Made by a program: the position numbers and the translations under genes. 64,000 nt of DNA, taken from assembly GCF_009834535.1 (NCBI RefSeq), contig NC_045696.1:24492001-24556000 (forward strand), written 5' to 3'. Positions 16,658 through 52,919 of this stretch are shown in pieces. The notes under the pieces were generated by a model. That model worked only from the letters and a program-made list of their open reading frames with translations, was not told where the DNA came from and did not search any database. The stretch is from Camelus ferus. Its lineage: Eukaryota. How positions within the stretch are numbered: the first letter of the stretch is position 1; each line of letters begins with the position of its first letter.

Positions 16658-16681
16658 ATGAATCTTTTCTGCTTTTCGCTG
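16658..16681 (+). CDS. SAMSN1: Coding exon 1 (MNLFCFSL) of a SAMSN1 long-isoform / LOC388813-like gene
   Basis: ATG in CAAAATGA context (A at -3), 8 codons, then a consensus donor CTG|GTAAGT at 16682. Phase 0 joins in frame to exon 2. Gene identity is from recalled homology and is unverified. Confidence 0.8.
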
Positions 16682-18354
16682 GTAAGTTTTTTCACATGTA
16701 CCATTTATATCCTCATTTGTATTTTACTGTATGGAGTTAGGGTATACCCTTAACTTCCTAAGTGGGGAGATTAATACATTCTAGGGTCTTATTAGAAAGT
16801 CCACGTCAGAAAAAGGAGGAAGTATGGTTTCGTTAAAGAACTTAAGCCAACAATACTCATTCGAAGGCAAGTAATTTACAAAAAAAGTACAAATTTATCC
16901 CTAATAATTACTAGTTACTTAACATTTTGAAACTGAATTTCTAAGTGTGAGATGTAAATAGTATTTTTGAGGAACTCTTCTTTTTATTATTGAGTATGAG
17001 TTTTTTGGGGGGTTTTTTTGGGTTTTTTTGCAAAATATGTTGCATTTGGGTTGCTTGTTTTGCTTTGGGACATTCCTAGGAATCACAATTTCTTCTTTAT
17101 TGCTTGAATAATGAATTCCATTCAATGTTGGCTTGGTTAAACTACCATGGAGGCAACTTTCTGAGTTACACAGCACTGTAAGTGCAAGGTACAATAGATT
17201 AATCCAGTCCTACAGATGTGCTCATTCAAGGGTATAAGCGCCTCTCCGATTCTTTTTTACATTATTGCTTTTTCTTTTTTTTTTTTTCCCCTTTAGCCTG
17301 AAGTGGATCAGGGAACGTTAGCCAGTAGTCACAGATCTGGAAATACTTTATAACTCTAACCTGCAATTGTGACCATTTGCCAAAGCTAAAAATGCATTTC
17401 AAAAATAATTTTATTCATTTCTATCTGTGCTTACAGCAGGGTATTATGCCTATTCATTGGCTTTTCAAGATGTCGATGGGAGATCCCTGTCGATTGAGGA
17501 AATAAAATGGTTTGCTTTGATGTTTGTTTTCTTTCCAAATTGCAAATAAGATTAACGTAAGTGCTAGAGATGGTGCTGACATAGGTTGCAGTACCTAAAC
17601 AGGAGGCATTTTAAGCCAAGATAAGGGATTTAATCTTAAAGCATCTTGAAAAATAAAATGCAATTGTGAGATGTGGCAGGCTGAATCATCGAGTGCGGGG
17701 TGCCTGTATAGTCCCAATTTACAGAATAACTACCAGTGCTCAACTTTGCTTTGTGCCATATAAATCTGACCGGAGAAACCCCATTTCAGGTGATTTAAGT
17801 GGTATTGTGCATTCTTTCCTAGTTGCTCTAAAAGAACTATATATGGTTTATGTGAATATACTTCCCGTGGAAATAGGCAGTGTAGCAACAGACACGATTG
17901 CGTTCCAAAATCACTCTGAATGGTCCTATAATCAGTATGCTAATGTTTCTATAACATAGCATAGCTCAGCATAGCGTGGCATATGCTTTGTAATCCTGCA
18001 ACTAAAGACATATAACCATATAATGAGCATGATTGTCTTTCTCTGTACTATAAGGATGGGAGCACATACTCAAAAAGGATCGCTTCAGAGCCATGCCTCA
18101 TGGACTCAGTTTGACTGCAACTCTTTTGTATCTTCTAAAGTTATCCTTAAAAAGTGACTTGCCTAGAAACATACTGCATTAGACTGAACCATCATGATCT
18201 GCTGACTTATTTTGTCTAAGCATTCCAAAACTTATATGTGGCCAAAATTAGTTGCTTTAATAAGAAAACATCCACAAGGTACTTGGAAAAAGATCAAAAC
18301 TGTTTTAGGTATTTTTAAAAATTTCTTCTTGTGGAAGAAATAATGTTATTTAGC

Positions 18355-18535
18355 ATACGGGCTCTCAACCAGGGTGTTGTGACACCCTACCGTGCTGTTA
18401 TGAGCTGTGAAAAAGGGGTGGGGTTACAGTTTTTGCCAGGAATTTGTGCATAATTCAAAACATATTTTATCTGTGTCTGCAGGAATGTGAACATATGGGA
18501 CACAGCATTTTTAAGAAGAGATTAAAAACTACTGA
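18355..18535. mobile_element. hAT-Charlie MITE remnant
   Basis: gggctctcaaccaggg ... attaaaaactactg are degenerate MER5-like termini. Confidence 0.4.
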
Positions 18536-19259
18536 CTTAGTGGAAAGAGAGGTCGAAGAATTAAAAAGTGGAGGTGTATAGAAATATATTGACCTCTAAA
18601 CCTCTAGGAAGGAGGTGATTTTAAGTAGCAAGCATCATATGAAGACTACCACTAAGGAAAGCCAGTGAAAGAGTTAAACATTCTCTTAAGTGTAGGGGGA
18701 AATTGTAAATCTTTTAGTAAATGGGGTTTTTAAGAGAAATATAAAGCCAGACTTAATGAACTACCCATTCTGAACCAAGGATACTATAAATAATCCATTA
18801 AAGGTGATTGCAATTATTTTAGATCTATAAACTCCAAATGGGGTCTGTCTCTCAAAAGAGGGGCAGGAACATCCTTTTATGTGTGCCACTCTGACTCCAG
18901 AATTTTTCTTAGAGTTTTACACAGTGATAAGGCTTTTAGAAAGCTCGCTTATTTGAAGCATGATGATTTTCCTGTTGAGCTCATCAAATAGTTATTGAAT
19001 TTAACTTGGCTTTGTAGCCCAATAAAGTCACTAATCAATTATCCCTGTGCTGTTTCTTCAGTGGCTTGAAATGCTGCATCTCTCTTTATTTGGTTTATGT
19101 ATTTTACCCCATTGTTTTACCTCCATCCCTTCTTAATGACTGTTCTGTGTATCTACTAAGATCATTAAAATGCCAAGGAGACATGTTATTCAAAAGAATA
19201 TCTTCTCCTTGTCCTTCTTCAAAATGTGGGCTTTTTAAGTCTCTGTGCTTCTGTGTGAA

Positions 19260-21260
19260 TACAGAATCATCTTTCAAGTTATATGAAAATCTTTGATGGG
19301 GTTTTGATTAAAATGGATTTGAATTTCACACCATCTTTATGGGAAATTGACTTCATAATGGGGTTGAGTTCTCCCATTCACAAACAAATAAAGCTCTTCA
19401 TTTATTCTAATCTTCTTCATGGCCTTTAATGATGTTTTATAATTTTCTCTATACTATTCTTACACATCTTTTACTAACTTTATTGCTAAGCTCTGGTTGC
19501 TGTTGTGATTTTTTTCCCCTCATTTGTTCTTGCTGATTTATAGATACATTGTTGATTTTCAGATATTGATAATGCAGATGATTAGTTTTGCTGAATTTTT
19601 AAAATTCTTGTAGTCTCTGGTTTATTTTTGATTTTTAACATAGGCAACCCACACATTTCCTCTTCTTTAGCAATTGTACCGTTCTCTGCTTCTCTCTCTT
19701 CCATCGCATTGACAAGTAAAAATGCTATAATGGCAGACATCCTAGTCTTGCTTCCAACATTCATGTAATTACTTCTAATTGAGTCTTCCCAAGGTTTTTG
19801 ATAAATAACCCTAATAAGGTTAAGGAAGTCCTGTCTTTTCCCAGTTTGCTAAGATTTTATCAAAGATGAATAATAAATTTTTCAGATACCTTAGAATATT
19901 TATTGAAAGAATAAGCTGTCTTTTTAAACATGTTAATAGTATATTTAAATGTTGAAACATCCTTATATTCTTATATTAAACACTGATTGGCCGTGGTGTA
20001 TTTTTATATACATTATTCGATTTAATTTTGTTAACATTACACTTAGGATTTTTAAAGCTGTAAGTAAAATTGGTCTATAATTTTCTTAAAATGAAAGAAA
20101 AATCTGTCATTTTATTTTTCTAGAATTCCTATTAATCCTATGCTGTAGTGTCTCAACATGTCCCAATAGACAATTTTATTTCAATATTTCATGCGTTTTC
20201 TATTTATTCTTTCATGCTGCACCCTGGTGAACTCTCTAGCATCTTCCAATTCTTTTGAGAGTTCTAGAGTTCATCCCAAATTTTGATTATTTCATACAAA
20301 TTTATATGATTATATATTTTTCAATATTTTTTTAAATTGTTTATTTTTTGTTGCTATTTAATGGTTCTTGTTTCTTTTCTGTCAGTTTTGGTTTCATTGT
20401 AGGTTATTTAATTTTAATTGTATATTTCTTTTTTATTTAGCTCTGTGAAGTTGACAGTCTTTCTTAAATTATTTCTCCGTCCATTTTATGATTTTAATTT
20501 CATTGGGAATGAAGTGGCTTTATTTTCAGATTGTCAATTTGGTTGACTTTCTTAGCATTTGATCCCTTCATGCATTCTGGCTACTGTTGAATGATAACTC
20601 TTTTTCCCTTTTCTCTGTCTCTGTCTCTCCATCTGTATCTCTGTCTCTGTCTCTCCCTCTCCTCCCCCCATCCACCTCCACCCTTCCCTGCCTCTCTTTT
20701 TCCTCCTTCCTAGCCTCTTCATCTTTCTCCATCTAGTTGTGAGGCATGAATCTCAAGTCTCTCTGAGGCCCGAGGTTAGAACCTAGGCTTACATTGCTGG
20801 TCCAGGGATCCCGTCCCAAGGTGGTATTTGGTGTGTTACTGATCCAGTCACTGAACTAGCTGGCAGCTTGTTTCTGATCCCAGTTTGCTGGCTGTGTGGT
20901 TGAATTGTGCTTTACTGGTCTAGAGCTTTCTTGAAGCAAGAGCCCCAGCAGCTACTGGAAGGAGCTTTCTTCAGCCTCCTTTCATAGCTGCACGTGCTGC
21001 TGTAGCCCCTGGACTTGAGCAGGGATTTGCTTTACATGGAGGATGTCTATTTACATTAAACCACAAAGCCCACAGTCCACGGTGCTGCCTGTTTGTGGGT
21101 GGGCCACTAACAGGTCCAAAGCTTAGCCTTCACTCACCACTCTGTGCTTCTGTTAGGTTTTTGCTTTCCCTACATGTTTATGTATTTCAGACCACACATG
21201 CTTAGGGCTCACTTACATCCTTTAAATTTTCCCAATAAGTTGCCATGTGCAGGGGTTACT
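19260..21260 (-). mobile_element. Old L1M element (ORF2, ORF1 and 5' remnants), degraded
   Basis: T-rich antisense L1 ORF2 motifs (gggaaattgacttcataatg, ggcagacatcctagtcttgcttcc, ggttaaggaagtcc...agtttgctaagattt). The distal boundary is uncertain. Confidence 0.7.
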
Positions 21261-22542
21261 TGAATTATGAAACTGTAGGGTTGAAATTTCTAAAGGTAGA
21301 CAATGTGAATACAATTCAATCTTCACTTTGTTTCCATCTTAATAAAATACTTTTTAAACATGTGAATATTTTTCAGTGAAACACTGTTTTTTCACTCATT
21401 GTTTCAAGCAATTAAACTTTTTCATAATCCAACAGATCTATATTTTGATGACACCATTATCAGTATCACCCATCACTCTGTCTAGAAATTTTCAATATAC
21501 TAAGCGTATACTGCTCTCTCTTAAGACTCTTTCTGGATGATGCCATCACTAGACCAATTCTGTCTCAAAAAGAAAAAATATAACAAGTCAAACACAAAGA
21601 AGATTAACTATGGAGTCCTCAATGTTTTGTTTTTTTTTTTTCCTTCCTACAAAAAGTGTGAAGGTCTTTTTTTCAATTGTGTAAGGTAGGCAAAATAATT
21701 TGTCAGTAAGTTTTTTAAGAATTTCACATATTGTGATTCTTTCTACTGTCCATCCCCTTAATTCCTCCAATTTTGAGTCGTAATCTTCAAGATAGCCTGT
21801 TCAATAAGAATTTTTGCTCAGTCAACAGTTGTCGTGTCCGTCAGCCCATAATTCTTTTAGCTGGGCTTCTTTGATCTCCAGTGGAACACATAATGGTTTT
21901 AAATGTAAACTCATATATTTTAAAATTCATAATTCCATAAAAGGATAAAAACAAACAATATTTTATTAGTATAAATAGTAAACATTAATATCAATGCATT
22001 TACTGTGCTTGTGAAATAGTTTTGCTGTTTCAAAGCATACTTGTATCCATTTTATCCTGAGAGTTCCTTTGTAAGATGATTGTAAAGACAACTCTGCAGA
22101 AGAGGCAGCTGAAGTAGAACAGATTCTGTTTCTTAAAGACATCATTCTAATTAGTGTTAATTAGTACTCTAATTAGAGGGAAACATATAACTAAAACCTG
22201 TGACCTGACACCCAACACAGTTTACTGGTGTCCAAATAGGCCTTTATTTAGTGCCTTGAACTTGATGTCTCCACCATGCTTCTTGAGAAATGGCCTCATT
22301 TTGTGCATGACTCCCCAGCACTTAGAGACTTGTTTGAATTCCTGGCTCTGTAATGAGGGCTGAGAAGGCCTCTCTTCACTGTCTAGCTCACTGCTGAAAA
22401 TTGGTATACCATCAACTCATAATCACTATGCACAGGCTAATTTAGATGGAGTACTGTATAAAGCTGGGTTGGTAGATTAAATGAGTTTCCAATGAAAATG
22501 ATCATTTTGTTATTCCTTGACTCATAAATCTCTTCATTGCAG

Positions 22543-22674
22543 GAGGGCTCTATGGACAGCTTATATGAACCAGTCCCGGAACAACGAGCTCACCAAGAGA
22601 GCGCCTCTGAGGGAACTGACTCTTTTATCTCACCCTCTGGGGAGAGTGGAGGAGCACGCAGCCGCCTCTTCATG
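22543..22674 (+). CDS. SAMSN1: Coding exon 2 (EGSMDSLYEPVPEQRAHQESASEGTDSFISPSGESGGARSRLFM)
   Basis: Acceptor tctcttcattgcag|, donor ATG|GTGAGT, 132 nt, phase 0-0, open. GC/CpG content is raised relative to the flanks, and the SMDSLY motif is typical of the SLy family. Confidence 0.88.
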
Positions 22675-23046
22675 GTGAGTCAACCTTGTGTAGAGTGGAT
22701 CGCCTCTTCTCTATGATATATTTAGAATCACTTGCTGAATGGTACCTGCTAATACAGCAAAAAATACTCTGTTTTCAGAAGGTTCTTCATTTACTTTTAG
22801 TTTCTGATTTTCTCTTCATTGTTGTCTCTTTCATGATTTTGGCTTATCGGTATTAACTACCATTTATAAAACTGGGTGATTATGTAACTTAAATGGATTA
22901 ATCAAAAGCAACCTTATGACAAAGAAATAATTGTATTATTTTCTAGATGAGGAAACTGCAGGAGAGAAATACAAAGTAACTTGTATAAAACAAATAAGTG
23001 TTAAATCTGGCAATAAAATATATACGTGCCTGCATCAACAGTTTAT

Positions 23047-23250
23047 CAGTAGTTTACTGGTAAGCCAGGTCTTCGAGGTTGGGGGGTGGGGAAAACCTGA
23101 GATTTGTAGCATTTGTCGATTTCCTTGGTGGAAATGCTCCTACTATGGTTACCATGGTTGATTTCAAGCGACCAGTGGTTTAATAACAAGCTTACGATAT
23201 CTGAATATTTAATCATTCATTGTTTCCAGTGACAACTCCAGCACAGCCAT
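23047..23250. mobile_element. MER63-like (hAT-Blackjack) DNA transposon
   Basis: gatttgtagcatttgtcgatttccttggtggaaatgctcc...gatttcaagc...ctccagcacagc matches recalled MER63A. Confidence 0.75.
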
Positions 23251-23669
23251 GACTGCTTGAAAGTCTGTGCTAACCAATTTACTAAGCTGCTTCTTCAACT
23301 TATGGACACACAACATCAACTTACAAAACATGAGTATTTCTAGAATGCAAATGCAAATAGTTTTCGTGAATTATCTTTATAATTACTAGAGGCATAGAGT
23401 TCTCCGTGCTCTGCAAAATTGGCCCTGTTTCTATTTTACAGTGTGAGCTGTTTTCTTAGTTGATTGTGTTGTATTTAAATTAATCCCATTCTAATAAACT
23501 TATTTTGCTTCTGTTGTGGCTTAGGACAATATGAAAGATCCTATGTCTGCAGTGAATAAAAACTTCTCTAAATTTAATAGATTTAGATGTTACCATCTAT
23601 CCTTAAAATCACATTTTCCCCATAAGAACATAGAAATTATATCAACTGTCCTTTCCTCAGTGCTCCCTT

Positions 23670-23830
23670 TTTGTAAGGCATTGTACTAGATGACGTTATA
23701 TATGAAATTATCTGTGTTGGTCCTCACAATAACTTCACAGAGGTTTAGAAATGTTGAGAAAGGCTAAATAACTTTTTCATTTGAAAAGAAGATGACCCAG
23801 AATTCAAATCCAGGTCTTCTTTTGCTCTAA
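23670..23830 (-). mobile_element. MIR SINE
   Basis: aggcattgtactag...tcctcacaataac...cccagaattcaaatccaggtct. Confidence 0.65.
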
Positions 23831-25949
23831 AGAAAAGATTAGAGTAAAATGCCTTCAAGTTTTATACTTACCTGCACAGCTATCTGTTTTATTCTTTGGA
23901 GACATTGAAAACTTTTCATTTTCTCAGTTTACGGAATGTTTCTGTTTCCCAGAAACTTAGATCAACTAAAAGGTAATATACTGTTAGTTAGTAAACAAGT
24001 TCAACAACGTATCAGTAACTAAAAAAAAAAAAAAAAGTGTGTGTAAACTCTTCCCTCAACTCTGTGCCCTTTTCAGTGTCTATAAGATGCTGATGGTGAA
24101 AAGAGACGCATAAGAGGAAGCAGGAGTACATTTTACACTTTAATGTGAGAGAGAGAGAGACCATTACATGGAGACTGTCAGTTGACATTGCAAAACGTTT
24201 CTAAGCATTTTTACCCTACGATTAAAAAGAAAAATTGAATAAGCTGAAAAGCCTGAAGATATTTCCTTAAAGGCGTCGGTTTAATAAGTATGCGTGAAAA
24301 ATAAACACGTTCATGGCCAGCCAGTCTACTAGAATTGTAATCAAACTTCATTTATATTGCAAAAGTAGATAAAAAAAGTAAAAACATGATTTAAATTACT
24401 AAACATTCTTTATACATATATATGTCTTAGTATTTAATTGTGAAATATATGCATATACACAAATATAAATGTATGTGTGTGTGTGTATAAATACACTGAA
24501 AATCAACTAGTTCAGTTATTGATCCACTATTCAATTGTCAAATTTTACCACTTGTATCAAATTATCATTGATATTTGTTTTATTCCTAATGAAAATGATT
24601 CCACAGCTTGGAATAAAACAAAGTTAATCTTACAATGATGAAATTTAATGATACAGAACTTTCCTGACTTTCCATCTAAGCCCCTGAAGAATGGATGCTT
24701 TTTTCCTCCTAGTATTCTCTTTCCTTTTGTTTTCCTCCCTAATTCAAGGGGGAAAGATCTGTACCAGTCTTAATAGTATCAGAAAAAGATTCTTCTTTTT
24801 GGATTAGTGTTCTAAAAATACTATAAAAATATCCCTAAAGCTAATAGAGATACTCCTCAAGCTCCTAGTCCTCAGCCCAAATCTATCTGCATTTTCCTGG
24901 AGAGGAGAGGGGCTCCCAAACTCACACCCTTCACACCCAAGATGACAGCATCTCCAGGTGTTACAGTGGAAAATAGAGTCCATACTAAAAATAATGTCAT
25001 TTGCCACATGACTTGAAAAGAAAAAACAAAATGAGAGAAGTTTCTGACTTCCCTTAAAGATGCTCTATTTATGCCTACTTGTTAGGAATTGTGCAATGTG
25101 GAAAACGGTGTGTTAGTCAAGGTGAGGCGTTACGTAGATGAACGTGTTCCAGGTCCCAAAGGAGGTGATCCGGTGTAGACCAACTGCCCAGTTAAGCATA
25201 GAGAAGGTGTTGAAGGGAAAGACATTTGTGTTGGGATTTTAAATGAGGAACATCAGAAAAGTCCAGTTTACATTTTAATAGCAGTTCCAGCAGGGGTTGG
25301 TAATGGAGAGCTGGTCTAAAGAGAAATCATTTTATAATGAGACTTTATTAAATTTTATAAAGAGAAATAATGAGTGATCCACTTGTAGTATGTTTAGCAA
25401 AGCCAGAGAATTTTAGAGGGCTATTGGCCTCCCCAAAAAAGAGGTAAAAAGTTTTACAGAGCGAATAATCATGCAACTAAACAAATACACTAACATGCTA
25501 GCCTGACTGGAGATCGACTACTGTTATTATATTGGTTAAATGTTGGCCATTACTGCTCGACTCTGTAACTGTGTTAGCACCCCTTTATTCTGTCTGAAGC
25601 TACTAAAAGATTTTGAATTAGAAAAAGAATCAGAACATAAAAGTGTTCGTACCTCTGACAATTTGGAGCTAACTGGTTCAAACCTGAATTATCAGGCTTG
25701 CCATCTATATTGATTGAAGTAAGCAAATAATTGTCAATTTTCCACTTCATTTTGTACCTCATAAATTAAATTAATAAGACATTTGAGCCTTTTCAAAGAG
25801 CTTACATGTGGAACGAGGACACTATCCCAATTATTTGTATGTAGCACATATATTTATAGGTTGCATAAATATTCATTCAATACATACTTGTAAGCTAAAT
25901 GAATGGATTCATGAAGGTTCATTCATCAAGCTTAAGAAAGTCTTAATAA

Positions 25950-26105
25950 TGGAGCATGGATGATGCAGCGTCATACGTGAGTTTTGGAGCTGGGTAGACA
26001 GGAATTTTCCCTCTAGCTCTGCCAATTACCAGCTATATGACCGTGGAAAGTTGCTCAAATTCTCTAGACCTCAGTGTCCTCCTCTGTAGAATGAAGAGAA
26101 CAATC
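25950..26105 (+). mobile_element. MIR SINE
   Basis: ctagctctgccaattaccagctatatgaccgtggaaagttgctcaaattctctagacctcagtgtcctcctctgtagaatg. Confidence 0.75.
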
Positions 26106-26199
26106 CTCGGTAGGGGTTCAGCCTAGTTCAGTTCCAGAGAAGAGCGTCTCCTCTTGCTCTGACAGCAGGAAGGACTGAGCACTGGAGCTAAAAGGGCCA

Positions 26200-26602
26200 G
26201 TGCGTCACAATAGAGCTACGGCGGGAACTACCACCCGAGGCGGCCAGTACATGTCCTAAGGACAGCTTTTACATTAAAGCAATTTGCTTTAAAATCAAAA
26301 CAAAAATAAAGAAGCCCATGCCATAGAAACCGTTTGTGGTCCACAGATTCTAAAATATTTCTATCTGGCTTTTCATGGAAAAACTTTGCTGACGCAAGTA
26401 GCCACTAAGTACTTGAGAACTGGCTAGTCCAAATGCAGCTGGTGACAAGTGTAAAATATACCCAGTACTTTAAAGACTTTGTAGTTAAAAAGAAGATAAA
26501 GTAGCTTATTAATAATTGGATGCTGATTTGTCTAAATTAGATTATTTTAGATATGGTAGGGTAAATGGAATTTCACTCATTTCTTTTAACGTGGCTACTA
26601 GG
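26200..26602. mobile_element. Adjacent MER58-like and MER33-like hAT-Charlie fragments
   Basis: A MER58 end (ctaaaatatttctatctggcttttcatggaaaaactttgctgac) is followed by MER33 motifs (tagccactaagtacttgag...gtggctactag). Confidence 0.65.
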
Positions 26603-27101: not shown

Positions 27102-27104
<3 letters not shown>

Positions 27105-27143
<39 letters not shown>

Positions 27144-27152
27144 ACACACACA
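27105..27152. repeat. (CA)n microsatellite
   Basis: About 23 near-perfect CA units with one TA interruption. Confidence 0.97.
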
Positions 27153-27337
27153 ACAAAAAGCAAGACTACTTAATACTATTATATTAAAAAGTAAACCACA
27201 GTGCATTTGCTGTAAAAAAGATTTTGCTGTAACTTCTGGCAGTCATTCTCAAAAGCAGCTGGACTTCAAGATCACCTGAAGTCACAGATATTCGGACCCC
27301 ACTCTGGACCGACTGCATCAGTGAGAACAGATTAGAG

Positions 27338-29260: not shown

Positions 29261-29354
29261 GGTAGTTCATCTGCTCATGAAGATTCTCCTTCACTGTAAT
29301 CCGTCTTCAGGACACTAGTGCAATTCTCAGCTTTCAACTTTGCAGAGTTTATGG

Positions 29355-36372: not shown

Positions 36373-38149
36373 AGATATAGGTCTAAGAATAAAGCTGTGT
36401 ATAGTCTTTCTTCAATTTGGACCTCCAGAAATAAAGAACTTAGGGTCTGAACTCCAAAGGATATCATGTAAGCAGAAGTCAGAATTGAAAGCAGCTGCTC
36501 TGAGTCCAGTACAAGCAGTACTAAAAATTGCTTAACCAAGTCAGTAATCACCTACGACTAAGCAACACCCAGGGACCAGACGTGTACTCTATTTAAGTGG
36601 ATGCCGCCCTGTTTGCATAATCCCTTTCCTTCTTATAATCGCACCTCAGACACACATTTAACGTGCTCGACTCTCCCCACCCTCTTGTAGGAAGCAGGTT
36701 TCCTGAGGAGAACTACATTAACTCTTTCATCCTAGTAGGGATTAGAAAGAAGTTTGACCTCAATATCTTTTTCAATGTGTTCATTACAAAGAAACTCTTT
36801 AATAAAAGATCCCCAAGCCTAAGCTGATTCATTATAAGCAGAAATTGGATGACCAGGGGTCCAGTAAAACAGAACAAAGCAGATAGTCCGTAGAGAATGT
36901 TAGGACAATATATGTACTAGAAATAACCAGTTTCTATCCACAGTCATATGAAATTCTTTCAGTCTTGGTCCCGATGTCTCCAAACCTCAGCTCAGAAGCT
37001 AACTGTGTTCCTTTCACCACCATTAGCAGCCAGGCGTATTTAACCAGTGCTGCGTGGTTCCAATCCCTGATTGCACTAACTTAACCAAGGCTTCACCCAG
37101 GTGAAGCAGAAGACGGCGCTTGAGTAATATGCCGTCTGTCCCAAGTCAAATACTTGGGATGCAATTGCACACGAGTTTTGTGTCATCTGGAATTAATCTC
37201 TTTGGTAGCATAGGCAATGAATTATTGATATAATAAGTTGGCTCAAAAAATAGTGTGATTCAAATGATAACAAATACAAAAGATACCTACTGTTTTCTGT
37301 CTTTCTTATTTCAAATTCACCTTTTGTACTGGTTAACTCTAGACCAGACACTTCTTCTCTATATGCTCAAAAGAGGTAGAGTCCTTTTGAAGAGTGCAAG
37401 ATCTATAATCCAAAGAGATTTATTTAAACTCACACAACAATTAATGAGACTCAGGATTATGATTATTCAGAGATGTCTGGCCCAGACAGCATAGATTATT
37501 GCCCCTTCCTAGCTAAACTCCAAATACATGTGACAGGAAAATATGACTACAAAGATGGATGGCCATCCTCTTTCCTGATGACTCTCACAGAGCTGCTGTG
37601 TCTGATGACTGTGATGAAAGGGATACAGTTAGCTTCTAGGCTGAAGTTTGGAGACATCTAGACCGACTGAAAGAATTTCATAAAAAGACTAAAAACAGAG
37701 ATTGATTATTTTTAGGACACATGATGATGAAGCACAGAGACTCGAAGGAGTGGTCAATCTGCCCATTACCTCCTCAGAGTTCCATTGAGATCCCAACTCA
37801 GCTCAGGGCTTGGTTCATTCCTCCTGTATCTTCTCCTCCACCCTCACCTCTCTTCTACAAGACGTTCTTCTCTGGGTGATCCACAGGCATTTCAACTCAA
37901 AAAAGTTGTTCCTCAAGTTTGGGGACTGATTGCTTCAGCATATGTGCTTTCAGTTCTACTCAATTTGAAATAAGTAATTCAAATTGCCCTTGAAGTTAAA
38001 TCTTGATAGAAATACAGTAAGGGTTTGAGAAAGGGCCCTGTCAGTTACTGTGTAGAGGGAAGGTTATCCTGGATTTCACAGTGCACAGACTAATATTATC
38101 AATCACTGGAATAGTAAAACCAACTTTGAGTATAATCTATAATAAAAAA

Positions 38150-39020: not shown

Positions 39021-39058
39021 GAAGTTTCTAATTTTGAGAATGCAAAACCAAAAAGGAA
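39021..39058 (+). CDS. SAMSN1: Coding exon 3 (EVSNFENAKPKR+)
   Basis: Long polypyrimidine tract ending ttttacag|, donor GAA|GTAAGT, 38 nt, phase 0-2. Confidence 0.82.
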
Positions 39059-41823: not shown

Positions 41824-41861
41824 GTCAATCCAGAGATCTATGTCTGAAAGCAAAGTATTTG
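41824..41861 (+). CDS. SAMSN1: Coding exon 4 (K-SIQRSMSESKVF+)
   Basis: Acceptor ttctttttgttcttctag|, donor TTG|GTTAGT, 38 nt, phase 2-1. It continues the frame from exon 3. Confidence 0.78.
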
Positions 41862-43591
41862 GTTAGTAATTCAGAATACTATTCATGCAAATGTTATGTT
41901 CTATTTGTCTAAAAGTGACTTTCTTCTGATAATCCCATAAAGCAATAATAAGTGATTAATGAAAGTCAAATGATTTGTCTTTGAATTCATTAGAAGAAAT
42001 TTTTTTAAAAAAAGAAATGTGGTCCCATTCTAATTTTAAATGGCTATGACAAATAAACCATTGATTTATTCAGAATAATTTCCTTTCATATTAAAAAATA
42101 ATTCTTTACAGTGGTGTATCGGCTGATTATCTCCCAGCTTCCCAACTTTAGCTTGGTGACCTCTTAGATATCTTTTCAGATCTATGAATCTAGGAATGAA
42201 TAAAAGAAGCCAAAAATAGTTGAATTATAAAAGACTTTTTCAAGCATTTCAAGCTCCAGAGCTTTTCTTTAGTTTCTGTGATTATAGCAATTTACAATAA
42301 AAATAAAGATGGGTTGACTTACATTTTAATTCTAAAGTAAATATCTAATTATTTTTAGAAAGTTAATGGATGGTGTCTCTCCCTTACAGATACAGGGAGT
42401 CACTAATTACAAAACATTCACAGTGACAAAACAATTGGATTATTCAATCAATAATTCATTTTTGTGCAGTTTGTCACACTTGTGGGTACCTCTTTTTCTT
42501 TCTCCCCAGTAGAGCCTAGGAGTTGAATCTTCAAATGCCCTTCTCCCTCTTTTCAAAACCAGTTTCCTGGATAGAATATGAAAAGCTCGCTCAGGCAGAG
42601 TGATGATCACCACGGATGCATCTACCATGGGCATCTGAGTTTTAATTGGGTCTGATCCTCTTCCCGTGGCAGCATCTGTGGGGGCTGAGTCCCATCTCAC
42701 TAGTCAAGGCCCTGTGGCACTAGTTGCTAAATATTTTGAATATCAGCCTTGATTTGAAGATTGTATGTTCTTAAATAAAAGGAAGTAAGGCAAACTCTTA
42801 TTTTCCATTTATATATGCCACTCTCATAGCAAATTCAGTCTGTGCACACAAAACTCTAGATATTTCCATGCTGACATAATTCTTGATGATCACCTGCCTT
42901 CTCTGTAGTCAAATATGAGAGCAAATAGCGCCTTTAAAACCAGCACAGCATGTCGAGTTTGTTTCCGTGTGATGCTTTGGTTGCATTATTTAAAATTTGT
43001 TTCATCAGTGGTATGATACAACATGTAGGAGGATTAGTCATCTGTAAGCAGATTCAGAAGGATTCCAGCTCTTCATTTTGGGGCAGTTCAGTTCTTTACA
43101 ATGTGCCCAGACCTGCTCCAGCTGTTGGAAGGACGAGGCTGAGAAAATCATGGTTCTCCCAGTAAAGGATCTTAGAGTTTCTTGAAACTACCCCAGCTCA
43201 GTGTTCTCTCTACATACTTAATTATTTTATTAAAAACAATGAGGAATGTGGAGAGTGGGGCTACTTCAATTGATGTATAAAAAATAAATGGTTATTAATT
43301 CAGGAAAAATACATCAAAATAATGTAATCATAAGCTATCAAGAGGAATTTCAGCAGCAACCTTCTATTATATATGCTTGGGTCCTTATGTAGTTCATGGA
43401 AATAAATGGGAGCCCACAGGACATCTAGGGGTGTCCATCAGGGACCAGAACTCCCCAAAATGGACCACAACACTTAATATATCACTTACCAAGTTACAAC
43501 TTATGCTGAACTTGTCTGATACCAAATTTCTTACATTTACCTGGCAGATGTTACTGTAAATTCTGCTAACCTACCCTTTGCTTTATTTTAG

Positions 43592-43678
43592 AGGGAAAAA
43601 CTGTGAATGACACAATTTGGCAGGAACCCAGGACGCATGAGAATGATTCCCATATCAGAAGACTCTGTCAGCTAAAAG
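43592..43678 (+). CDS. SAMSN1: Coding exon 5 (E-GKTVNDTIWQEPRTHENDSHIRRLCQLK+)
   Basis: Branch-point-like CTGCTAAC at 43563, acceptor ctttattttag|, donor AAG|GTAATT, 87 nt, phase 1-1, open. Confidence 0.82.
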
Positions 43679-45149
43679 GTAATTGCTAAATTTAGTTTAG
43701 CTGACTTTGCATTTTCCTATAGTTTAAAGGGCAGGTAAGAAAAATTTACTTCTTTCTTCATTAAAATAAGCAGAGCATTGTGGTCTACTTAACAAGAAAA
43801 AACTAATAGAATAGAATGTATATATTATTAATAGAATATATGTGTGTGTGTAGATACACAGACATGCAGAAAGGAAGTGAAATCTAATTAAGTTACCTGT
43901 TGAAGCAAAGAATCAATTGCAAAATATTTGAAAGTCTTTAATGTCTACAAGGATGCAAAAATATATTAAAATTAGCACACACAAAAACCTTCTAAAATAA
44001 CGCTAATATATTAATGGTTGTTATTTTTAGGTTTTCTTAAAAATTAAAGAGAAAAAGCTTGATTATTAATGCAAGATTAAATACATTTTATCATTAAAAA
44101 AAGTCCCAAGAAGAGCAAATTAGCGGCCAGGTATAGGAAAATTTATTAATAATAAATGACTTCATAATTAAAATTACTTAACTTTGAGAAGGTAATGAAT
44201 AAAACAGTAAGTCTTAATAGTTTGCAAAGATAAACAAAAACATAAAAAGTTGATCTGCTTGGTATTCTCTCTACAATGTTACTGTAACAAGAAATAATTG
44301 CTCATATTAGTTATTGATTATTTATGAGTTTCTGATTTTTTTAATTAAAAAATATTTTTTAGTATTTTTGGACAAAGGGAATTGTAATGTACTTTTATAC
44401 TCAAGAGTTTAATGATTGGATTATACATTCTGCCCAGATTTTGCCTTTTGTTTTTTCACAGAGTTCATAGATTTACAAAGTAATTGTTTATGAAAATAAT
44501 AATTTTCCTTTGAAATATTTCAGTTTTATTCAGGATTGTATAATGTTTTAGTGATTAGTTTTAAGTTAATTTTAAAATATTTACAGTTTTCTCCATTATA
44601 AATAAATAAGTAGGTGAAACATTTGGGGATTATTTTAGATATTTTCTTTTAATTATAACATAGGAAATGTTTTACTAATATATTTTGATTGGATTCTGTC
44701 CTCACCTCATGGATGCCAGCTGTATTCATTCCCTAAGACAGACATTCATCCCCCTATCCATTCATCCCTCCACCTCTTCAATAAGCACATGTTACTTCTA
44801 GATTATTGTATATTTATCTATAAAGAATAAAGAAGGTATAACTATATTACAGATTATTTTTAGTTATGAATTTTTCCATAAACCTCTTCAAGTATTCTAT
44901 TTTCTTAAACTTTCTTTCTACAAAATATGGTGGTTTTTGTTCTTGTTTTTGTTTTTGCTTTAAATTTAGGAACAATTGGCAAATAGTTCTACTATAGCCA
45001 CACTGACAAAGCAGCAAAAAATCTTGGTCTGAAGAAAAGTGCTTCCGATTAGTGATCTGTTCTTTGTCCAAGAACAAAAATGACAGCCTTTATGGAAGAC
45101 TTTTCAGCTTTGACATGTCTCAGATCCTTAAGTGATTATGTGTTCGTGC

Positions 45150-45184
45150 TGTGTGTGTGTGTGTGCGCATGCATGTGCATGCAC
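45150..45184. repeat. (TG)n / alternating purine-pyrimidine tract
   Basis: tgtgtgtgtgtgtgtgcgcatgcatgtgcatgcac. Confidence 0.85.
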
Positions 45185-47383
45185 CTAAGAAGTTCAGCAG
45201 ACATTTCAGCAGGAGCAGCTGAGTCACAGGACATTTCCTAGGGATTAATGCTGTGCTAGAGAGAGTTGATGGCCTGAGACCAAGGCTGTCGTTGCCATTG
45301 TAAATTGAAGGGAGAAATTTAGTCGAAGAGAGAGGGCCACAGTTTGTGGACTTGAATTTTATGGGTGTAGTAGCTTCCTTTGAAGTCTCAGAGTATTTCT
45401 AAGCAATTAGTGCCCTACATATCAACCTACAATATTTCTTTCTCATTTTAAACACTATGTTTTAGCTGTTAGTTGCATAACGACTTAAGAGTGGTCTACT
45501 GTGCCTGAGGATAGGCTGTCCGTAAAGCTGATTGAAATAACGAAAGCAAGGTGCTTCGTCGCCCATGATTTTAGTGAATACTAGTGATGAAATGGTAAAG
45601 ACCGTCTTTCAATTAAACAGAAGAGACTATATAGGGAAATACAAGGTGGGAGTGATAGTGACTTCTAAAGAATCTATTACAAACTCTAAAACCACAAAAA
45701 ATGGCCCTTTCTCTCAATTTTCATTTCAAAATGGTATTTCCACGTGACATGTTATATTAACAGCATTTCAGTCCTAAAGAGTATTGGGCCTGATGAAGGA
45801 AACTTCCACAGGGTATATTTAGCCAAGGATTTGTGCCTGGAATTTTAATCCCTAAAGATAGTCACATACCCTGATAACATGACTGTGTTATGTTGGTTAA
45901 GACAAAATTTATCAGATTAAGTTGAGTGCTGGAAGCATTTTTAGTTTATCTACTCCATTTCCTTCTTCTAAGAATAATTTTATTTAAACCTACATCTCTG
46001 GTACTGAGACTACACCTGTTAAATAAGTGGAGGATAAATTGAGTCAGGACTTTACAATTGAAAGACTGGCATAGCTTTGATATCAAGGGAAATTAATCTA
46101 TAATTCATGTTAATTGTTTTCTTTCAGCATCATAAACAGGCAGAATATTCATAATATTCATTTCAGTAAATTAAAATCAATTTTAAAAAATCTTTAAATT
46201 TATTTTGGCCTTAGTTTTCTGAGGGGAAAAAAAGCCTGAAAAGAACAAACTTTGAAATCTATGAATTGGAATTTACCCAAGATCAAATTAAAATTTAAGT
46301 AAAGATATTTCCGAGAACAGAGTTTTCATTATTTTATAACAGAAAGTACAAAGAACAGAAACAAAGTAAAATTATTTAAAAAGTAATAAAAAGAAAACAA
46401 AACTTATTTGGAGATTTAGAGATTATTTTTTCAAACAGTATGACTGCGATACACTATTTTATGAAAACAGAAAATATGCAAAAGAAAAACTGGCATGTAA
46501 TAGTAAAGGATATAAGGGGCTGGAGAAATTCAGGAAGCATAGTTAGTAATGAAAAGAGAATTAATTCCACCCATACTGCTGCAAAATTATTCTTAAAATA
46601 AACCCTCTTTACATATGGTTTTGATGAGTCCATCATCAAAAAGAAAAAAGCCATTGGTAGAAGAGGATGTTAAGACCCTCCAGTTTAACAGTGGAAATTG
46701 CCATTAATTTGAAATATTCTTTCCTGGATCTAGTCAATATCATTACTGGGCCAGCCTCTTCAGAGTAAGCATAAGCATATAAATATTTCAGCTTAGTTTT
46801 TCTAGATCTTATTAATTCTTTTTCTTTATTGGCTCGATACCCTCATTTTCAAGATGTTAAATATATATAGCCACAAGTGTACTTACCATTCTGTTTAATT
46901 CTCAGGGACCAAAATTTGATTGAAAAATCATTTCTGAAGAGCATGTAATTTAACTCTGGTTAGACGGGACTACATGAGGAATGACAGAGAGAAGTCTGAT
47001 TTTACACCTGAATGTCTTGCTTACGATGCGGGAATAAACCTCCTGTGCAGAGGTTGCCCGCCCCTGTGGGCCTCTCTCACCTCCAAGGAAGCCTCTCCGA
47101 ATTGAATAATGATAACACTCTGAGTTCTAGTGTTTTGTACAAATGAGTCTTGGAATCCTTTCAATTCTTTAGGAGCGTTCTTACCTGAGTGTGGTCAGAA
47201 GTCTAATCTCCATTAGACTCACCTAAAAGCTGATTAGAAATATTGCCTTTTTTTTTTTTCTACTTCATCCCACTTTTTTTTCCTGCATCTGCATTTGAGA
47301 GGCAGTTGGAGTCTGAATGTGCACGTTGGATAGCGCATTCTTACATACATTGTCATTTGTGACCCACTTATGTAGTTCATGCA

Positions 47384-48000
47384 TGTACTAACAATCTACT
47401 GCTACAAACAAACCACCCCAAAACTTGATGACATAAAGCAGCATTTTATTCGGCCCATGGATTTTGAGGTCAGGGATTCAGTCAGGACAGTGCTTCACAA
47501 TGTCTGAGGCGTCCTCTGGGAAGACCTAAATGCTAAGGACTTAAATGTCTGGTGACTAGGATCACTTAGAGTTTTCTTCACTTACATGTCTGGGACCTGT
47601 CTGGGATAACCTGAGGCTGGGCTCAGCTGGGACTGCCAGCTGGAGAACCATTATGTGGCTTCTCTATGTAACCTGAGCTTCTCCCAGGCTAGAGGCTGGG
47701 TTGTGAGAGGGAGAGACGTGAGCGGGAGCGTCACACATCACACTGGGAAGTGTCTGGAGAGTGAGCATCCCAAGGGACCCCAGTAGAAGCTGCCAGGCTT
47801 CTTCTAACCTAGACTTAGAGGTCACAGAACATCACTTCCACTGCATGTTACTGTGACAAGCCAATCACTAAGGCCAGTCCAATTCAATAGCGGAGAATTA
47901 AACTCCATTTCTTGATGGAGGACAGCCAAGGTCACACTGTGGAAGAACGTGGGATGAGGGAGATATTGTTGTGGCCATCTTTGGAAGATATAATGTGCAT
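47384..48000 (-). mobile_element. MLT1 (F/G-like) LTR
   Basis: aacaaaccaccccaaaacttgatg...gaggtcacagaacatcacttccactgcat...gtggccatctttggaagatataat. Confidence 0.85.
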
Positions 48001-48209
48001 AGTACCCAATTCAATGACTGCCTTTATTGCTGCTGAGGATCAAATTGCTTCTCTCTTTATAAATGTTTTCTTGGAAGGGTAATATTGAGGAGATGACAGA
48101 TAAATAAAATGTGTAAGACTACAAAACAAAGGGCTAATCTTCATGAAATGCCATGTTTCTGGTGTCCCTTTCTTGGTCCAAAACCCTCAAAAGTCTCCCA
48201 TCTTCTAAG

Positions 48210-48530
48210 CAAAGGCCACAAATGGGTAGCTTTATAAATGTATTTATTTTGAGAAAAAGCTGGTTTGGGGCATACAGTATATTAAAATTCAGGAAATTTT
48301 ACGTTAAAATTCAAATAGTTATACTCCCTTGAGAAACATGAGGAGAATTGACAATCCTGGGTCCGGAGTCTGAGGTGATTTCAGTTGAGTGAGCTGAGAT
48401 CCATGGCTGCCCTTTAGCCATGGTGGACCTGCCCCTCGCCACACGCCTCCCAGTGCCTCCCTGACAAAATTCGCTTCGCTTAGTTAAGTTACTTATATGA
48501 CTTCCTTAGATATTTATATTTGCAACATTG
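48210..48530. mobile_element. hAT-Charlie (MER102/MER58C-like) remnant
   Basis: Degenerate TIRs caaaggccacaaa ... tttgcaacattg. Confidence 0.5.
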
Positions 48531-48534
48531 GTCT

Positions 48535-48965
48535 CATGGGTTATGTCCAAATTCCTCCACCTGGTACTCAGGGCTCATTAAAATTCCTCCTCACTCACCT
48601 ACCCAGCCTTGCCTCCTCTGGTGCAATGTCTAGAATTGCCCTCTGACCTGATCAATCTCAATCTCTACATTTAATTAGACATGTTTCACTTCCTGCACAC
48701 TACAGGCCAGTGTTCATGGCATTGCATTTGTATTTGTAACTTTTCCTTTTCTTCTACTTTTCCAAACTGTCAGCCTTCTTCAAGCTTCCACGGAGGCCCT
48801 GCCTCTTGCACGAGTGCTCTGGGTCACGGGGCTGTCTCCCCACCGTGTGTCCCCATCACTCATTTTGCTGCCTTGCATTGTTGCGTAAGTGATGGCCCTG
48901 ACTCAGCTGCTCCCAGATTTGAGAGTACAGGAGTCTACTTCACTGTTCTTTTCCTGTACTCAGAA
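48535..48965 (+). mobile_element. L2 3' region fragment
   Basis: Pyrimidine-rich sense L2 motifs (atgtccaaattcctcc, cacctacccagcct, ccagatttgagag). Confidence 0.45.
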
Positions 48966-49809
48966 GAATAATTATAGAGGGAGCGCTCCAAAATTCAGGG
49001 TAAAGGGATCAAAAAAAGGGAAGCGATGAAAAGGAATAAAGGAACAGAAGAATTTTTTCTAAATACAGAGACTAAAACATTTTTAAAAAGGCAGTAAAAA
49101 CTCTGCTTCTAGCCTTCTAACCTTGTGACGGATGGCAGCTCTTGCTTCAAAGAGCCACATCACAAAACCAGCTCATTTTAAAATTTAAGTATTTTCTGGA
49201 ATCTTGGAGTGTGGTTACTCTGATTTGAAATATTAAGTCATTGGTGGCAATAACTCTGAGCTGTGAATTTAGCATATCTTTTAACCAGAGCTATATTGGG
49301 AGTTTGGAGAAAAGCCTGCTCCGCTTTTTCATTGTGCATGGAAGGTGGGCCTTGCCTGCTCCTTCCTCCCCCATAGAATATAAGAAAGAGGAAGAGTGGA
49401 AAATTGAAGTAGTGACTAGAAGTAAAAAGGAGTGAAGGTGAAAGAAAAAGTCATCGGCCTGGTGGCCAGGAGATTTCTGTGGTTCTCAGTATCCTCATCC
49501 ATAAGCGAAGGGGCTTCGGTTAAGTGATCCATAAAAAGTCCTGTCTCGGTCCAGCACAGGGTATAGTCCAGATTTAAATAAATGGAGCCTCTTTTACAGG
49601 GCCTGACAGGGAAATGCTACTATCTTTTGAAAAGGTTTCATTTAGCTGCAAGCAAATGGATGACACATTCCAAAGCTTTTGCCAAAGCATGCAGAGAACA
49701 ATTTCAACATAAATAATTCATGCTGAGAAGACATAAACTAATGAAGCTCAAAATGCCAGGGGTGGGAAACTCGGTTTAACAGAAACAAGTGAGGTGATAC
49801 CTTCATGGA

Positions 49810-49930
49810 ATCGCAGCATTTTGGAGGTAGAAGTGGTTCACTGGCTAAGATGCTACTCTTTTATTAGTGGGAAGGAAACTGAGTCCCAGAGAAGTTCCAT
49901 GATTTGCCCAAGAACACAGCTGGTCAGTAG
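49810..49930 (-). mobile_element. MIR fragment
   Basis: aaggaaactgagtcccagagaagttccatgatttgcccaagaacacagctggtcagt. Confidence 0.7.
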
Positions 49931-50138
49931 TATTCTTCGTTTTTATTGTGTTACATTTCTATTTTATTTGCACCTATTTCTGGTAAGAAGAGCGTATCTT
50001 CAAGAAAGTAAACACTTATGGTCTAGTCAATATAATGCATTAATAGACTAAGGAAAAATTTTATGAGTATTCAGTTGCACTTAAACTTCTTAAACCTCGT
50101 AATTCCTGGTAATGTCTATGTGACACCTCTTTTCATAG

Positions 50139-50218
50139 CTCTAAATGAAGACGGTTTTCTTTGGAGTAATAACGTACATTCTGTGCAAGGAAGAAAACTA
50201 CAAGGCGTTTCTTATCAG
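50139..50218 (+). CDS. SAMSN1: Coding exon 6 (A-LNEDGFLWSNNVHSVQGRKLQGVSYQ)
   Basis: Acceptor cctcttttcatag|, donor CAG|GTAACA, 80 nt, phase 1-0, open. Confidence 0.8.
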
Positions 50219-51149
50219 GTAACATGAATCATCAACATGTACGTGGTGTTTTGTGAAAACCGTCTTGCCCCTGAGCTCCGTCATATCTAGACGTAGTGTA
50301 CAATGCTTAGCCTTGTCGTTATTTTGTATTTAGTTCCTGCAGGTTGTTTTGTAATTGATATGCTTATGTCTCTGTGAATTGGAATGTAAATGAAAAAAAT
50401 CAAATGACAACTTGAATTAATAAACCATCTTGATTATGCAAAACATCACGCTCTACAGACTTTTGATAAGTAACTGTGAAATTAATACACTGGGATTTTC
50501 TCTGACAAGACCTGTGCTAAGTGCTTAGAATGATCTAGCAACCTCCAGTGAGGGGCATGTCCCTCATGTTCCATGTTTGGTAAAAAATCATATACTGTGA
50601 TTCCTGACATATCCCTTTAAAAATTGTATTAATTAGCCTAGGAGTTCAAGCAATTAAGAATTTCTGAACCTGGGGCCTCCCTAATAATAATAACATAGCA
50701 TTAATTAACAGCCAAATAATTGCTATTCACCCTGTAACAAAAAATCGTACGTAGGTCAACAGGGCTAACTCAGGCACCATACTGATTTTTGATATTTTTC
50801 TGACAGCCATGGTATTCTCTTTAATCATTCTGATGGTTTTATTAGAAAATTTAGAACTGAGCTTCCTCGGTACAGTAGATTGATCAATAGGCAGAGGGTA
50901 TGTAGCATGTGAATTGCAAGGGGCTGACTTGGTGAGGAAAGGGAGCTGGAATTCCTAAATCCAGCCTTATTTCTGAGGCTGTCGGAGGCCCTCCGACGCA
51001 TTAGACAGTGGATCATAACCTTTGACCAACCGCAGTATCTGCGGGCTGCTCTGATGCTGCGGGAGTGATACAGCTATGCTCCCGGTGGGGCGCCTGCCCA
51101 TGGCTGCCTGTTGCCAGAAAGTCATCCACCAGCCGGCTCTCGTGCAGGG

Positions 51150-51370
51150 CATGGTTGAGAGATCTGGAAACAGAGAGACTCTGCTTGGATCTTAGTTTGG
51201 CCCTAGTAGCTATAGACTTTGTGCAGTTAATCTCTCTCTGCCTCAGTTTTCATCATCTGTAAAATCAGAACCTATACCTCATATCTGTCATGAGGATTAA
51301 GCGAGATACTTCATTAAAGCACTTAGCTTCATGGCTGGCACTCAGGAGATGCTTAAAAAATTCAGTTATT
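51150..51370 (+). mobile_element. MIR SINE
   Basis: ctctctgcctcagttttcatcatctgtaaaat...catgaggattaagcgagata...aaagcacttagc. Confidence 0.85.
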
Positions 51371-52197
51371 GTCATTGAACCTCTTCTTTTCCCTTCCCCT
51401 TTTCTCCTCCCCTTACTTTTTGCAAGAACTTAATGACACTTTCATAAACACAGCTCGCAGATTAGCTCTGAAATATGCAGTCTCATCCTCCCAGATTTAG
51501 GTGAGGTCTCACATATAGTATCTAAGTGAAACATTATCTAGTAACCAGGAAAAAATAACAGTCAGTTTATAGTAAGAGCTCCCCGACATGCTTTGTGCCC
51601 AGAGAAACCCTTCTTTAAATCTGTAGTAGAAAAACAGAACCATCTCAGAAATAAGAAAATGATGTAGAACATTCTTGGAAGAAAGGGTTAAAGATAAATC
51701 TTTAACACCAAACTTTCTATATGTTTTCACTGGCCAAGAAATGATCCTTCTAGAATGGTAACCATTCATTTGTACTATGTAGTTTATCACAAAAGATTAG
51801 CTGTGGGAATTCATAGCCAGTGACGGACAGGTGGGAGCTATTGAATCTAGAAATCTTGGTGTGAGAATTGGGGCTGGTCTTATCTATCTTTAATATGTCT
51901 CTTCTTATTCATAGTAGGCATTTGATTGAGCTTAACTAATTAAGAAACACTTTTTCCTGAATGACAGAATATTTCAGTGCAACAGAGTATTACTAAATAT
52001 TAAGCAGTACTATGCAAATTGTTAATCTATTAACTCTTTGTGACCAAGGAAAAGTAGAAGCAGCTTACTCTTCGAACGATGTGGGAGAGAGGGAACCGTT
52101 CTCTGCTCCAAGGGGAGACTGGCCTGTCGGTGGAGTTCATAAAAACGGACTCTGGCACAGACTGTGGCCTCTAATAACATGAGAAGTGACATCAGGG

Positions 52198-52340
52198 CAG
52201 CGTTTCTCCAAGTGTGGCGTGGGAACCATCTGTATCAGAATCGCTTAGGGTATCTGTTAAAAATGCAGATTTCTGAGCCATACCCTGGTCCAAATGAATT
52301 ATATCAGGGGTCCAGGAATCAGTATTTTTACATGAGTCTT
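52198..52340. mobile_element. MER5B-like hAT element
   Basis: cagcgtttctccaagtgtgg...atcagaatcgcttaggg...tgttaaaaatgcagatttctg...ccaggaatc. Confidence 0.8.
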
Positions 52341-52779
52341 CAGAGGAGGCTCAGGACCTGACAGGTGAGACTCTGGGATGCAGACAGTTGATGAGCACTT
52401 GTCTGTAGACATGATGTCTCATGCACTTTCACTTTACAAACCCCAACTTGGCTCAGGTCTCGTCTGGGGAGACAACAGCCTCCTGGAAAAACCAAAGCTG
52501 ATACTTGTTCTGCATTATGGGAATGATATGCATTCATTACAGAACTTTTTAAAACTATATAAAAGTAGAAAGGATTAAGATACTGAATAATATCTTAATA
52601 GAGTAAATGTTTACACGGCACTGGCCATTTTACTGAATATCATTAACATGAGGTAAGTTCCCAGGATGCCAAACATATTATAGTTATTATTATCATAGGA
52701 TCATGCTTACAAAATATATTTTGGACAATAAAAATATTCAGAATAAAAGAGTTAAACATCAACTGAATTTTCTGAATAG

Positions 52780-52919
52780 AAAACCCTCAACCAGACATGT
52801 TTCCTTCATGTTCTCAAAATGAGAAGAAGGATCTCAGATGGAAGAAGTTACAAGGAACCAAGTGGCAGGAGTCGGAGAAGATGTCTATGGAACGTCTCCT
52901 CCAATAATGACTGTGCTCG
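52780..52919 (+). CDS. SAMSN1: Probable coding exon 7 (KTLNQTCFLHVLKMRRRISDGRSYKEPSGRSRRRCLWNVSSNNDCA+)
   Basis: Acceptor ttttctgaatag| has a weak tract. Only the phase-0 frame required by exon 6 is open across all 140 nt. Purine-rich exon-like composition; donor TCG|GTGAAT, phase 2. Confidence 0.55.

Follow-up and report, generated by a model that had tools for sequence, protein, structure and literature searches.

Functional papers on the adaptor SAMSN1 (HACS1/SLy2) treat immune forms of 373 or 441 amino acids (PMC2211965, PMC4198825), and the SH3 domain of the short form is reported to bind near immunoreceptor tyrosine-based inhibitory motif (ITIM) 3 of PIRB (PMC7666139). A longer isoform is itself already known, both from annotation and from a supplement published in 2020 (PMC7745631). 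The two share the SPIDER, SH3 and SAM domains from about residue 316 of the long form, but the short form has its own downstream promoter and a basic first exon, and it contains neither the 315-residue N-terminal extension nor the Cys5/Tyr16 motif with which that extension begins. Here we describe a stretch of 64,000 nucleotides from Camelus ferus (contig NC_045696.1, positions 24,492,001 to 24,556,000 of the forward strand; hereafter the window), in which six small exons, spread between 16658 and 50218, are almost certainly the 5′ coding exons of the long SAMSN1 isoform in the Old World camel.

A long transcript has been cloned from the dog, where the SAMSN1 structure was confirmed by sequencing PCR products from normal retina (PMC7745631). 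According to that supplement, dog variant 2 (GenBank MN989985) has an open reading frame (ORF) of 1731 nt with ORF exons of 24, 132, 38, 38 and 87 nt; the 87-nt exon joins a 347-nt exon directly, followed by seven exons in common with the short variant 1 (PMC7745631). This complementary DNA (cDNA) establishes a long SAMSN1 mRNA in which the upstream exons connect with those for SH3 and SAM; its start in dog lies 90 kb upstream of the short-form start. A preliminary description of the window presented the camel reading frame as hidden, but RefSeq and UniRef annotate the long form widely, for example in human (NP_001382786.1) and in the curated long record of zebrafish samsn1a (NP_001122141.1). 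Long forms extend over approximately 570–740 aa. In a full-length camel model (P0122) Pfam places SPIDER (PF12485) at 316–460, SH3 at 463–515 and SAM at 538–598, all above the cut-off and all encoded by exons beyond the window; the dromedary model, too, continues after exon 6 into an exon that lies outside it. The window codes for 133 of the roughly 315 extension residues of a 669-aa protein, which is a good deal less than the 5′ half of the isoform that the preliminary description had supposed.

That description had joined seven GT-AG segments into one frame, and all seven were located as it gave them, with AG acceptors at exons 2–7, GT donors at all seven segments and phases of 0-0-2-1-1-0-2; the joined segments comprise 179 codons with no stop. 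The first six are well corroborated, whereas the seventh was not confirmed as coding. On the forward strand, the coding part of exon 1 (16658–16681; 24 nt, eight codons, GT donor in phase 0) holds an invariant cysteine, Cys5, and the first 11 codons of exon 2 (22543–22674; 132 nt) supply a Ser/Tyr motif with Tyr16. Exon 3 (39021–39058) and exon 4 (41824–41861) are each 38 nt long, exon 5 (43592–43678) is 87 nt with exit phase 1, and exon 6 (50139–50218), which is alternatively used, is 80 nt with exit phase 0; exons 2–6 are all bounded by AG and GT. The first five camel sizes (24/132/38/38/87) equal those of dog retina variant 2, and introns 1–4 are collinear and of similar length in the two species (6377/18210/2893/2181 nt in dog and 5861/16346/2765/1730 nt in camel).

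The 133-residue peptide of exons 1–6 is identical at 133 of 133 positions to residues 1–133 of Camelus bactrianus SAMSN1 X1 (XP_045376767.1), and matches alpaca at 123/133, pig at 108/133 and human isoform 6 (NP_001382786.1) at 92/134; the camelid, pig and human models all include exon 6. Among 120 stored homologues, exon 2 finds a match in 98, exon 5 in 55 and exon 3 in 23 (E ≤ 1). Exon 2 used alone as a query returns two proteins, each named SAMSN1, and the N-terminal 300 residues of a peccary match return 112, from mammals to cartilaginous fishes, in a search that took near-length matches and so covered long forms; SPIDER and SAM domains are present in nearly all of these 112. The homology search therefore bears out the suggestion that the peptide has counterparts in SAMSN1 proteins well outside the mammals, and agreement of this degree, far beyond chance, argues that exons 1–6 are real. 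Three possible RNA runs contain 0.56–0.61 of the sampled query words, exon 2 alone making up 0.53 of the query; these shares are suggestive only, and two further shares, of 0.13 and 0.26, were left out of account.

Conservation in the extension is concentrated in the first 17–19 residues, MNLFCFSLEGSMDSLYEPV, and long SAMSN1 proteins begin in this same way from sharks to mammals, as the preliminary description had anticipated for non-mammalian proteins. In an alignment of 34 sequences from shark to camel, 11 of residues 1–17 are invariant. Across mammals, sauropsids, amphibians, ray-finned and cartilaginous fishes, identity to camel is 98–100% over exon 1 and 91–100% over residues 9–19, compared with 84–97% for the SH3 domain and only 10–15% outside mammals for residues 20–52. 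From sharks to mammals, residues 1–17 equal the SH3 domain in their degree of conservation. A wider tally began with 154 profile matches among 334 stored proteins, of which 136 include the start and were counted, the 18 without it being left out; isoforms of one species are counted separately in the 136, which hold 28 distinct 19-mers. Met1, Asn2, Phe4, Cys5, Leu8 and Ser11 are present in all 136, and Tyr16 and Glu17 in 135; the one model that departs from this leaves exon 2 out.

Residues 3–8 are the most hydrophobic of 664 six-residue windows. AlphaFold2 gives a predicted local distance difference test (pLDDT) value below 50 for nearly all of residues 1–374, with no fold before residue 361, and there is no Pfam family in the extension, in keeping with a linear motif set in disorder. 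Eight of nine SAMSN1 long forms checked have a second core of the Ser-x-Asp/Glu-Ser-Leu-Tyr type (S-x-[DE]-S-[LI]-Y) within SPIDER, but none of the SASH1-like and SASH3-like proteins that were checked has one. By sequence, Tyr16 also agrees with an ITIM-like consensus, printed with [SIVL] before the tyrosine and [IVL] at +3 (PMC7666139): position 14 is Ser in 125 of the 136, position 15 Leu, Ile or Val in 133, and position 19 Val or Ile in 119. We considered reading residues 12–17 as a PP2A-B56 docking site and set this aside, because position 12 varies (Thr or Asn in 17/136) while Tyr16 is fixed. Among the 334 stored proteins, which were gathered by a whole-protein search, the N-terminal 25-residue SAMSN1 profile has no match in SASH1-like, SASH3-like or invertebrate proteins, unrelated carriers of the motif not having been sought. 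The ESM Atlas gave no usable match for residues 1–40 or 1–315, and prediction of a complex between residues 1–35 and SH3-SAM (455–612) scored 0.00, which speaks neither for nor against such contact.

The preliminary description compared the architecture of the long form with that of SASH1, and part of this comparison holds. Several unnamed representatives from a profile search (for example P0212, 1243 aa) are presumably SASH1-like, to judge by their sequence and length. A profile built from 89 SAMSN1 extensions can be aligned with the N-terminal regions of six SASH1-like proteins (a seventh, which lacked an end marker, was left out) over 121 columns, with a probability of 76, a pairwise E of 2.3e-5 and a score of 44.9, where 30 column shuffles reach at most 18.3 and the reversed profile 20.0. 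The alignment begins in exon 4 and runs to the exon after a cassette that follows exon 6. On this evidence the SAMSN1 extension and the SASH1-like N-terminal region are most likely paralogous segments that have diverged. Both proteins carry the same SPIDER-SH3-SAM core; the SASH1-like protein, however, has about 600 extra residues in its 1243, which long SAMSN1 lacks, and a long C-terminal half, and it does not match the N-terminal SAMSN1 profile. A central SASH1-like block that by eye resembles invertebrate relatives aligns in SAMSN1 only as gaps and low-confidence columns, and the SASH1-like profile has no match in the window. By its domains the long SAMSN1 product is a member of the SLy/SASH1 adaptor family; by its length, and with only part of its N-terminal region homologous, it is not SASH1 proper. 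Homology of the extension to the SASH1-like region suggests in turn that the long form is the ancestral layout and that the short immune form arises from an internal start.

Several of the fish and invertebrate SASH1-like proteins (P0208, P0210, P0215, P0233, P0244, P0259 and P0279) begin with an extra SAM-like domain, which we take to resemble SAMD5. This suggests that SAMD5 and SASH1, a pair that already appears in the literature, were ancestrally one gene.

Just 5′ of the start codon lies a block conserved at the DNA level (16516–16611, forward strand), a non-coding promoter or 5′ untranslated region. When translated, the 5′ extensions of models from Xenopus, Anolis and a bird agree with 16516–16626 at 59–66% (E 1e-8 to 1e-12), but the matching frame does not lead into the camel ATG, and the block is therefore conserved as DNA. 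It contains a strict K50 site at 16549 on the reverse strand, K50-like sites at 16540, 16561 and 16577, and an E-box at 16602, and there is no strict Q50 site in 16300–16681. Bipolar-cell regulatory regions are described as carrying K50 and E-box motifs and lacking Q50 (PMC6802965), and the camel block agrees with this grammar at face value, although strict K50 sites are common. In the same source mouse Samsn1 is expressed in bipolar cells at a log2 fold change of 4.77 over rods (27-fold) and 1.47 over blue cones (PMC6802965). Work on zebrafish (PMC10662954), Anableps (10.1101/2025.11.02.686143) and mouse (PMC10399600, PMC12765171) uses the gene, as samsn1a or Samsn1, to mark bipolar cells, and it is reported to be up 3.3-fold in Blimp1 mutants with precocious bipolar cells (PMC5317276). 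The upstream promoter is thus probably used in retinal bipolar neurons by way of OTX2/CRX-type K50 sites and the E-box.

Two further features lie close to this block. An in-frame upstream ATG at 16586 opens 24 additional codons (16586–16657, forward strand) in a weaker Kozak context than that of 16658; these match a dromedary model (P0124) at 24/24 and human NP_001382787.1 at 11/13. It is possible that 16586 serves as a minor longer start, equivalent to human isoform 7, while protein conservation across vertebrates begins at 16658. Within intron 1, 17080–17189 on the forward strand matches the N-terminus of an aardvark model (P0002) at 56–82% in two frames (E 7e-6). We read it as a conserved intronic stretch that a predictor has used as an alternative first exon, and which is possibly a regulatory element.

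How might these features act together? The upstream promoter would transcribe the exons described here, and splicing would carry them, by way of further exons outside the window, to the SPIDER-SH3-SAM exons common to both forms, as seen in dog retina and expected by extension in camel, and the short form's own first exon would be replaced by some 315 mostly disordered residues. Short alternative N-termini with a cysteine in a hydrophobic run are described as palmitoylation switches in neuronal scaffolds (PMC2156213, PMC6365469). PSD-95 alpha, GRIP1b and GAP-43 share this arrangement with long SAMSN1, a likeness in the way of working and not of homology, and on this analogy Cys5 in its hydrophobic patch could be S-acylated and tether the adaptor to the membrane, which we put forward tentatively. 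Docking of an SH2 protein to phosphorylated Tyr16, to judge from the residues around it, seems to us evenly balanced between likely and unlikely. The best explanation overall, which we hold with a little less than even confidence, is that a retinal bipolar-cell promoter yields a membrane-anchored, tyrosine-docking adaptor. The fuller proposal, that jawed vertebrates have kept an ancestral SASH1-like long SAMSN1 for bipolar neurons, with a K50/E-box promoter and a lipidated cysteine beside a phosphotyrosine dock on a synaptic scaffold, we consider unlikely in its entirety.

Several observations weigh against the explanation of a membrane-anchored bipolar-cell adaptor. The PSD-95/GAP-43 rule is five consecutive hydrophobic residues including two cysteines, whereas SAMSN1 has four (Leu3–Phe6) and one cysteine; acidic and not basic residues follow its hydrophobic patch; and a literature search by title found no reports of palmitoylation or phosphorylation of long SAMSN1. 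Strict K50 sites are present in 41 of the 426 tiles of 150 bp, and the pattern by which the block is singled out as 1 of 426 tiles is a looser one, picked after the sequence was seen. The bipolar data are all gene-level, and since dog retina yields the short variant 1 transcript too, the short form could be the source of the bipolar signal. For camel, the case for splicing of these exons is made by gene models and the dog cDNA. Among the runs that contain exon 2 words are a mammal-metagenome RNA-seq run and one from a reproductive-system library, a possible sign of wider expression, or else of DNA.

The alternative that survives best holds that residues 1–17 are a protein-docking or N-terminal degradation motif and not a lipid anchor, the patch fitting a partner's pocket and phosphorylation of Ser11, Ser14 and Tyr16 switching the binding. 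Near-total invariance over 17 positions, including Asn2, Leu8, Gly10 and Ser11, exceeds the usual needs of acylation, for which any hydrophobic swap is tolerated; the single cysteine and its acidic neighbours are also more easily understood in this way, and the second S-x-[DE]-S-[LI]-Y core in the SPIDER region (8/9) suggests a shared binder or kinase. Docking accounts less well for the fixation of Cys5 in 136/136 when positions 3, 6 and 7 beside it do vary, though among residues of similar kind, and no binder is known, so that we regard it as conceivable though on balance doubtful. A second alternative accepts the long form as real but not as bipolar-restricted, the product being general in non-haematopoietic tissue (neural, gonadal or broad at a low level) and the retinal link incidental. 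The reproductive-system library would be in keeping with this. The only long cDNA found cloned, however, is the retinal one from dog, the gene is a bipolar marker in mouse and in two fishes, and for zebrafish samsn1a the curated record is of a long form; general expression of this kind is accordingly rather unlikely.

A third alternative is that the seven-exon frame of the preliminary description is the true product and that its exon 7 (52780–52919, forward strand, 140 nt) is a camelid-specific coding exon. This segment is bounded by AG and GT and is open in its entry frame, but it has no homologue: the best E against the 120 stored homologues is 5.4 in the proposed frame and 0.23 in any frame, a protein database search returned no match at E ≤ 10 (a weak test), Pfam has none in three frames, and the profile of 89 long-form N-termini that finds exons 2, 4, 5 and 6 does not find it. 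It is absent from all the stored camelid models. That of the dromedary goes from exon 6 directly to an exon outside the window across a phase 0 junction, and skipping from exon 5 gives phase 1; because exon 7 leaves in phase 2, and the downstream exons need 0 or 1, it would shift the frame on either route. None of seven nearby site pairs gives an open, frame-preserving variant, and the pyrimidine tract is the weakest among the seven acceptors scored. The same splice-site and open-frame filter is passed by 19 acceptor/donor pairs at ten loci, exon 7 among them, in the 13.5 kb of 50300–63800. These comparisons mark exon 7 as a chance pick within intron sequence and not a member of the long SAMSN1 isoform, and its use as a camelid coding exon is very improbable. 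That exons 1–6 form a separate small gene upstream of SAMSN1 is hardly credible, for although some older models end after exon 6 or slightly later (P0121, P0124, P0137, P0079), and models in which these exons stand alone bear the name 'putative uncharacterized protein ENSP00000383407' (presumably the product of LOC388813, the uncharacterised human protein with which the peptide had been compared), full-length RT-PCR (reverse transcription PCR) with sequencing from dog retina places them and the SH3/SAM exons together in a single ORF of 1731 nt, curated NP_ records exist in human and zebrafish, and SPIDER and SAM domains are carried by nearly all of the 112 near-length matches.

The exons are therefore best treated as part of long SAMSN1, in which the middle of the extension is of a different character from its N-terminus. 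At 57223–57287 on the forward strand, after exon 6, lies a relic of an ancestral cassette exon, 65 nt between AG and GT, in which the entry frame meets a TGA at its sixth codon and the 16 conserved codons of the 3′ part sit in another frame. The cassette is intact, with 22 codons, in 12 stored proteins of primates and dugong, and is thus kept in the human long form and broken in camel. The dromedary model skips the relic, while those of Bactrian camel and alpaca get across it by means of upstream intron pieces that differ between the two, 51461–51475 and 52161–52363 respectively, both on the forward strand. The six residues that precede the relic in the Bactrian model could not be rebuilt with canonical splice sites, and we read them as a predictor's patch. 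Both bridging pieces are probably annotation artefacts worth correcting.

The module of exon 6, cassette and next exon that camel retains in part is skipped altogether in the dog retina cDNA, and also in five stored carnivore and bat models. In a Canis aureus model (P0031) the end of exon 6 differs from that of bear and joins the 347-nt exon directly, as if by a frameshift in Canis, as seen at the protein level. Together, the skipping of the module in these transcripts and models and the altered exon 6 end in Canis point to the middle of the extension being optional, and exon 6, the cassette and the next exon would then act as an optional spacer under loose constraint.

Elsewhere in the window, 9171–9242 on the reverse strand resembles tRNA-Ala(AGC) (Rfam 52 bits; ARAGORN) with an A-rich tail directly after it, and is more likely a tRNA-derived short interspersed element or tRNA retrocopy than a tRNA gene. 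Copies resembling interspersed repeats form an inverted pair at 36910–37020 and 37611–37722 (78%) and a direct pair at 15999–16165 and 55142–55307 (71%).

Because the exons were already annotated, their value as a discovery is modest, and the interest lies in the distance between what is annotated and what has been studied: work on function deals with the immune forms, yet in fish and mouse the gene is a bipolar-cell marker, and a very strongly constrained motif is present in the long form. Full-text literature searches, whose coverage leaves out most subscription journals, returned no title concerned with the long form and no description of the long-form motif, the SASH1 homology or the promoter. 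An existing mouse strain is of interest in this respect. C57BL/KaLwRij is a natural Samsn1-null strain, with a deletion at chr16:75,816,191-75,996,161 whose beginning falls within intron 2 of the mouse Samsn1 transcript that has the upstream start (PMC4198825). The first two exons of that transcript may be orthologues of exons 1 and 2, in which case the strain would lack the long form too. Variant interpretation limited to the short transcript would miss the exons described here. If the long form is a bipolar-cell protein, SAMSN1 would have a role in vision; if the fuller proposal is true, the N-terminal 17-mer would be an undescribed linear motif held at the constraint of an SH3 domain for approximately 450 million years, through which a soluble immune adaptor becomes a membrane-anchored synaptic scaffold.

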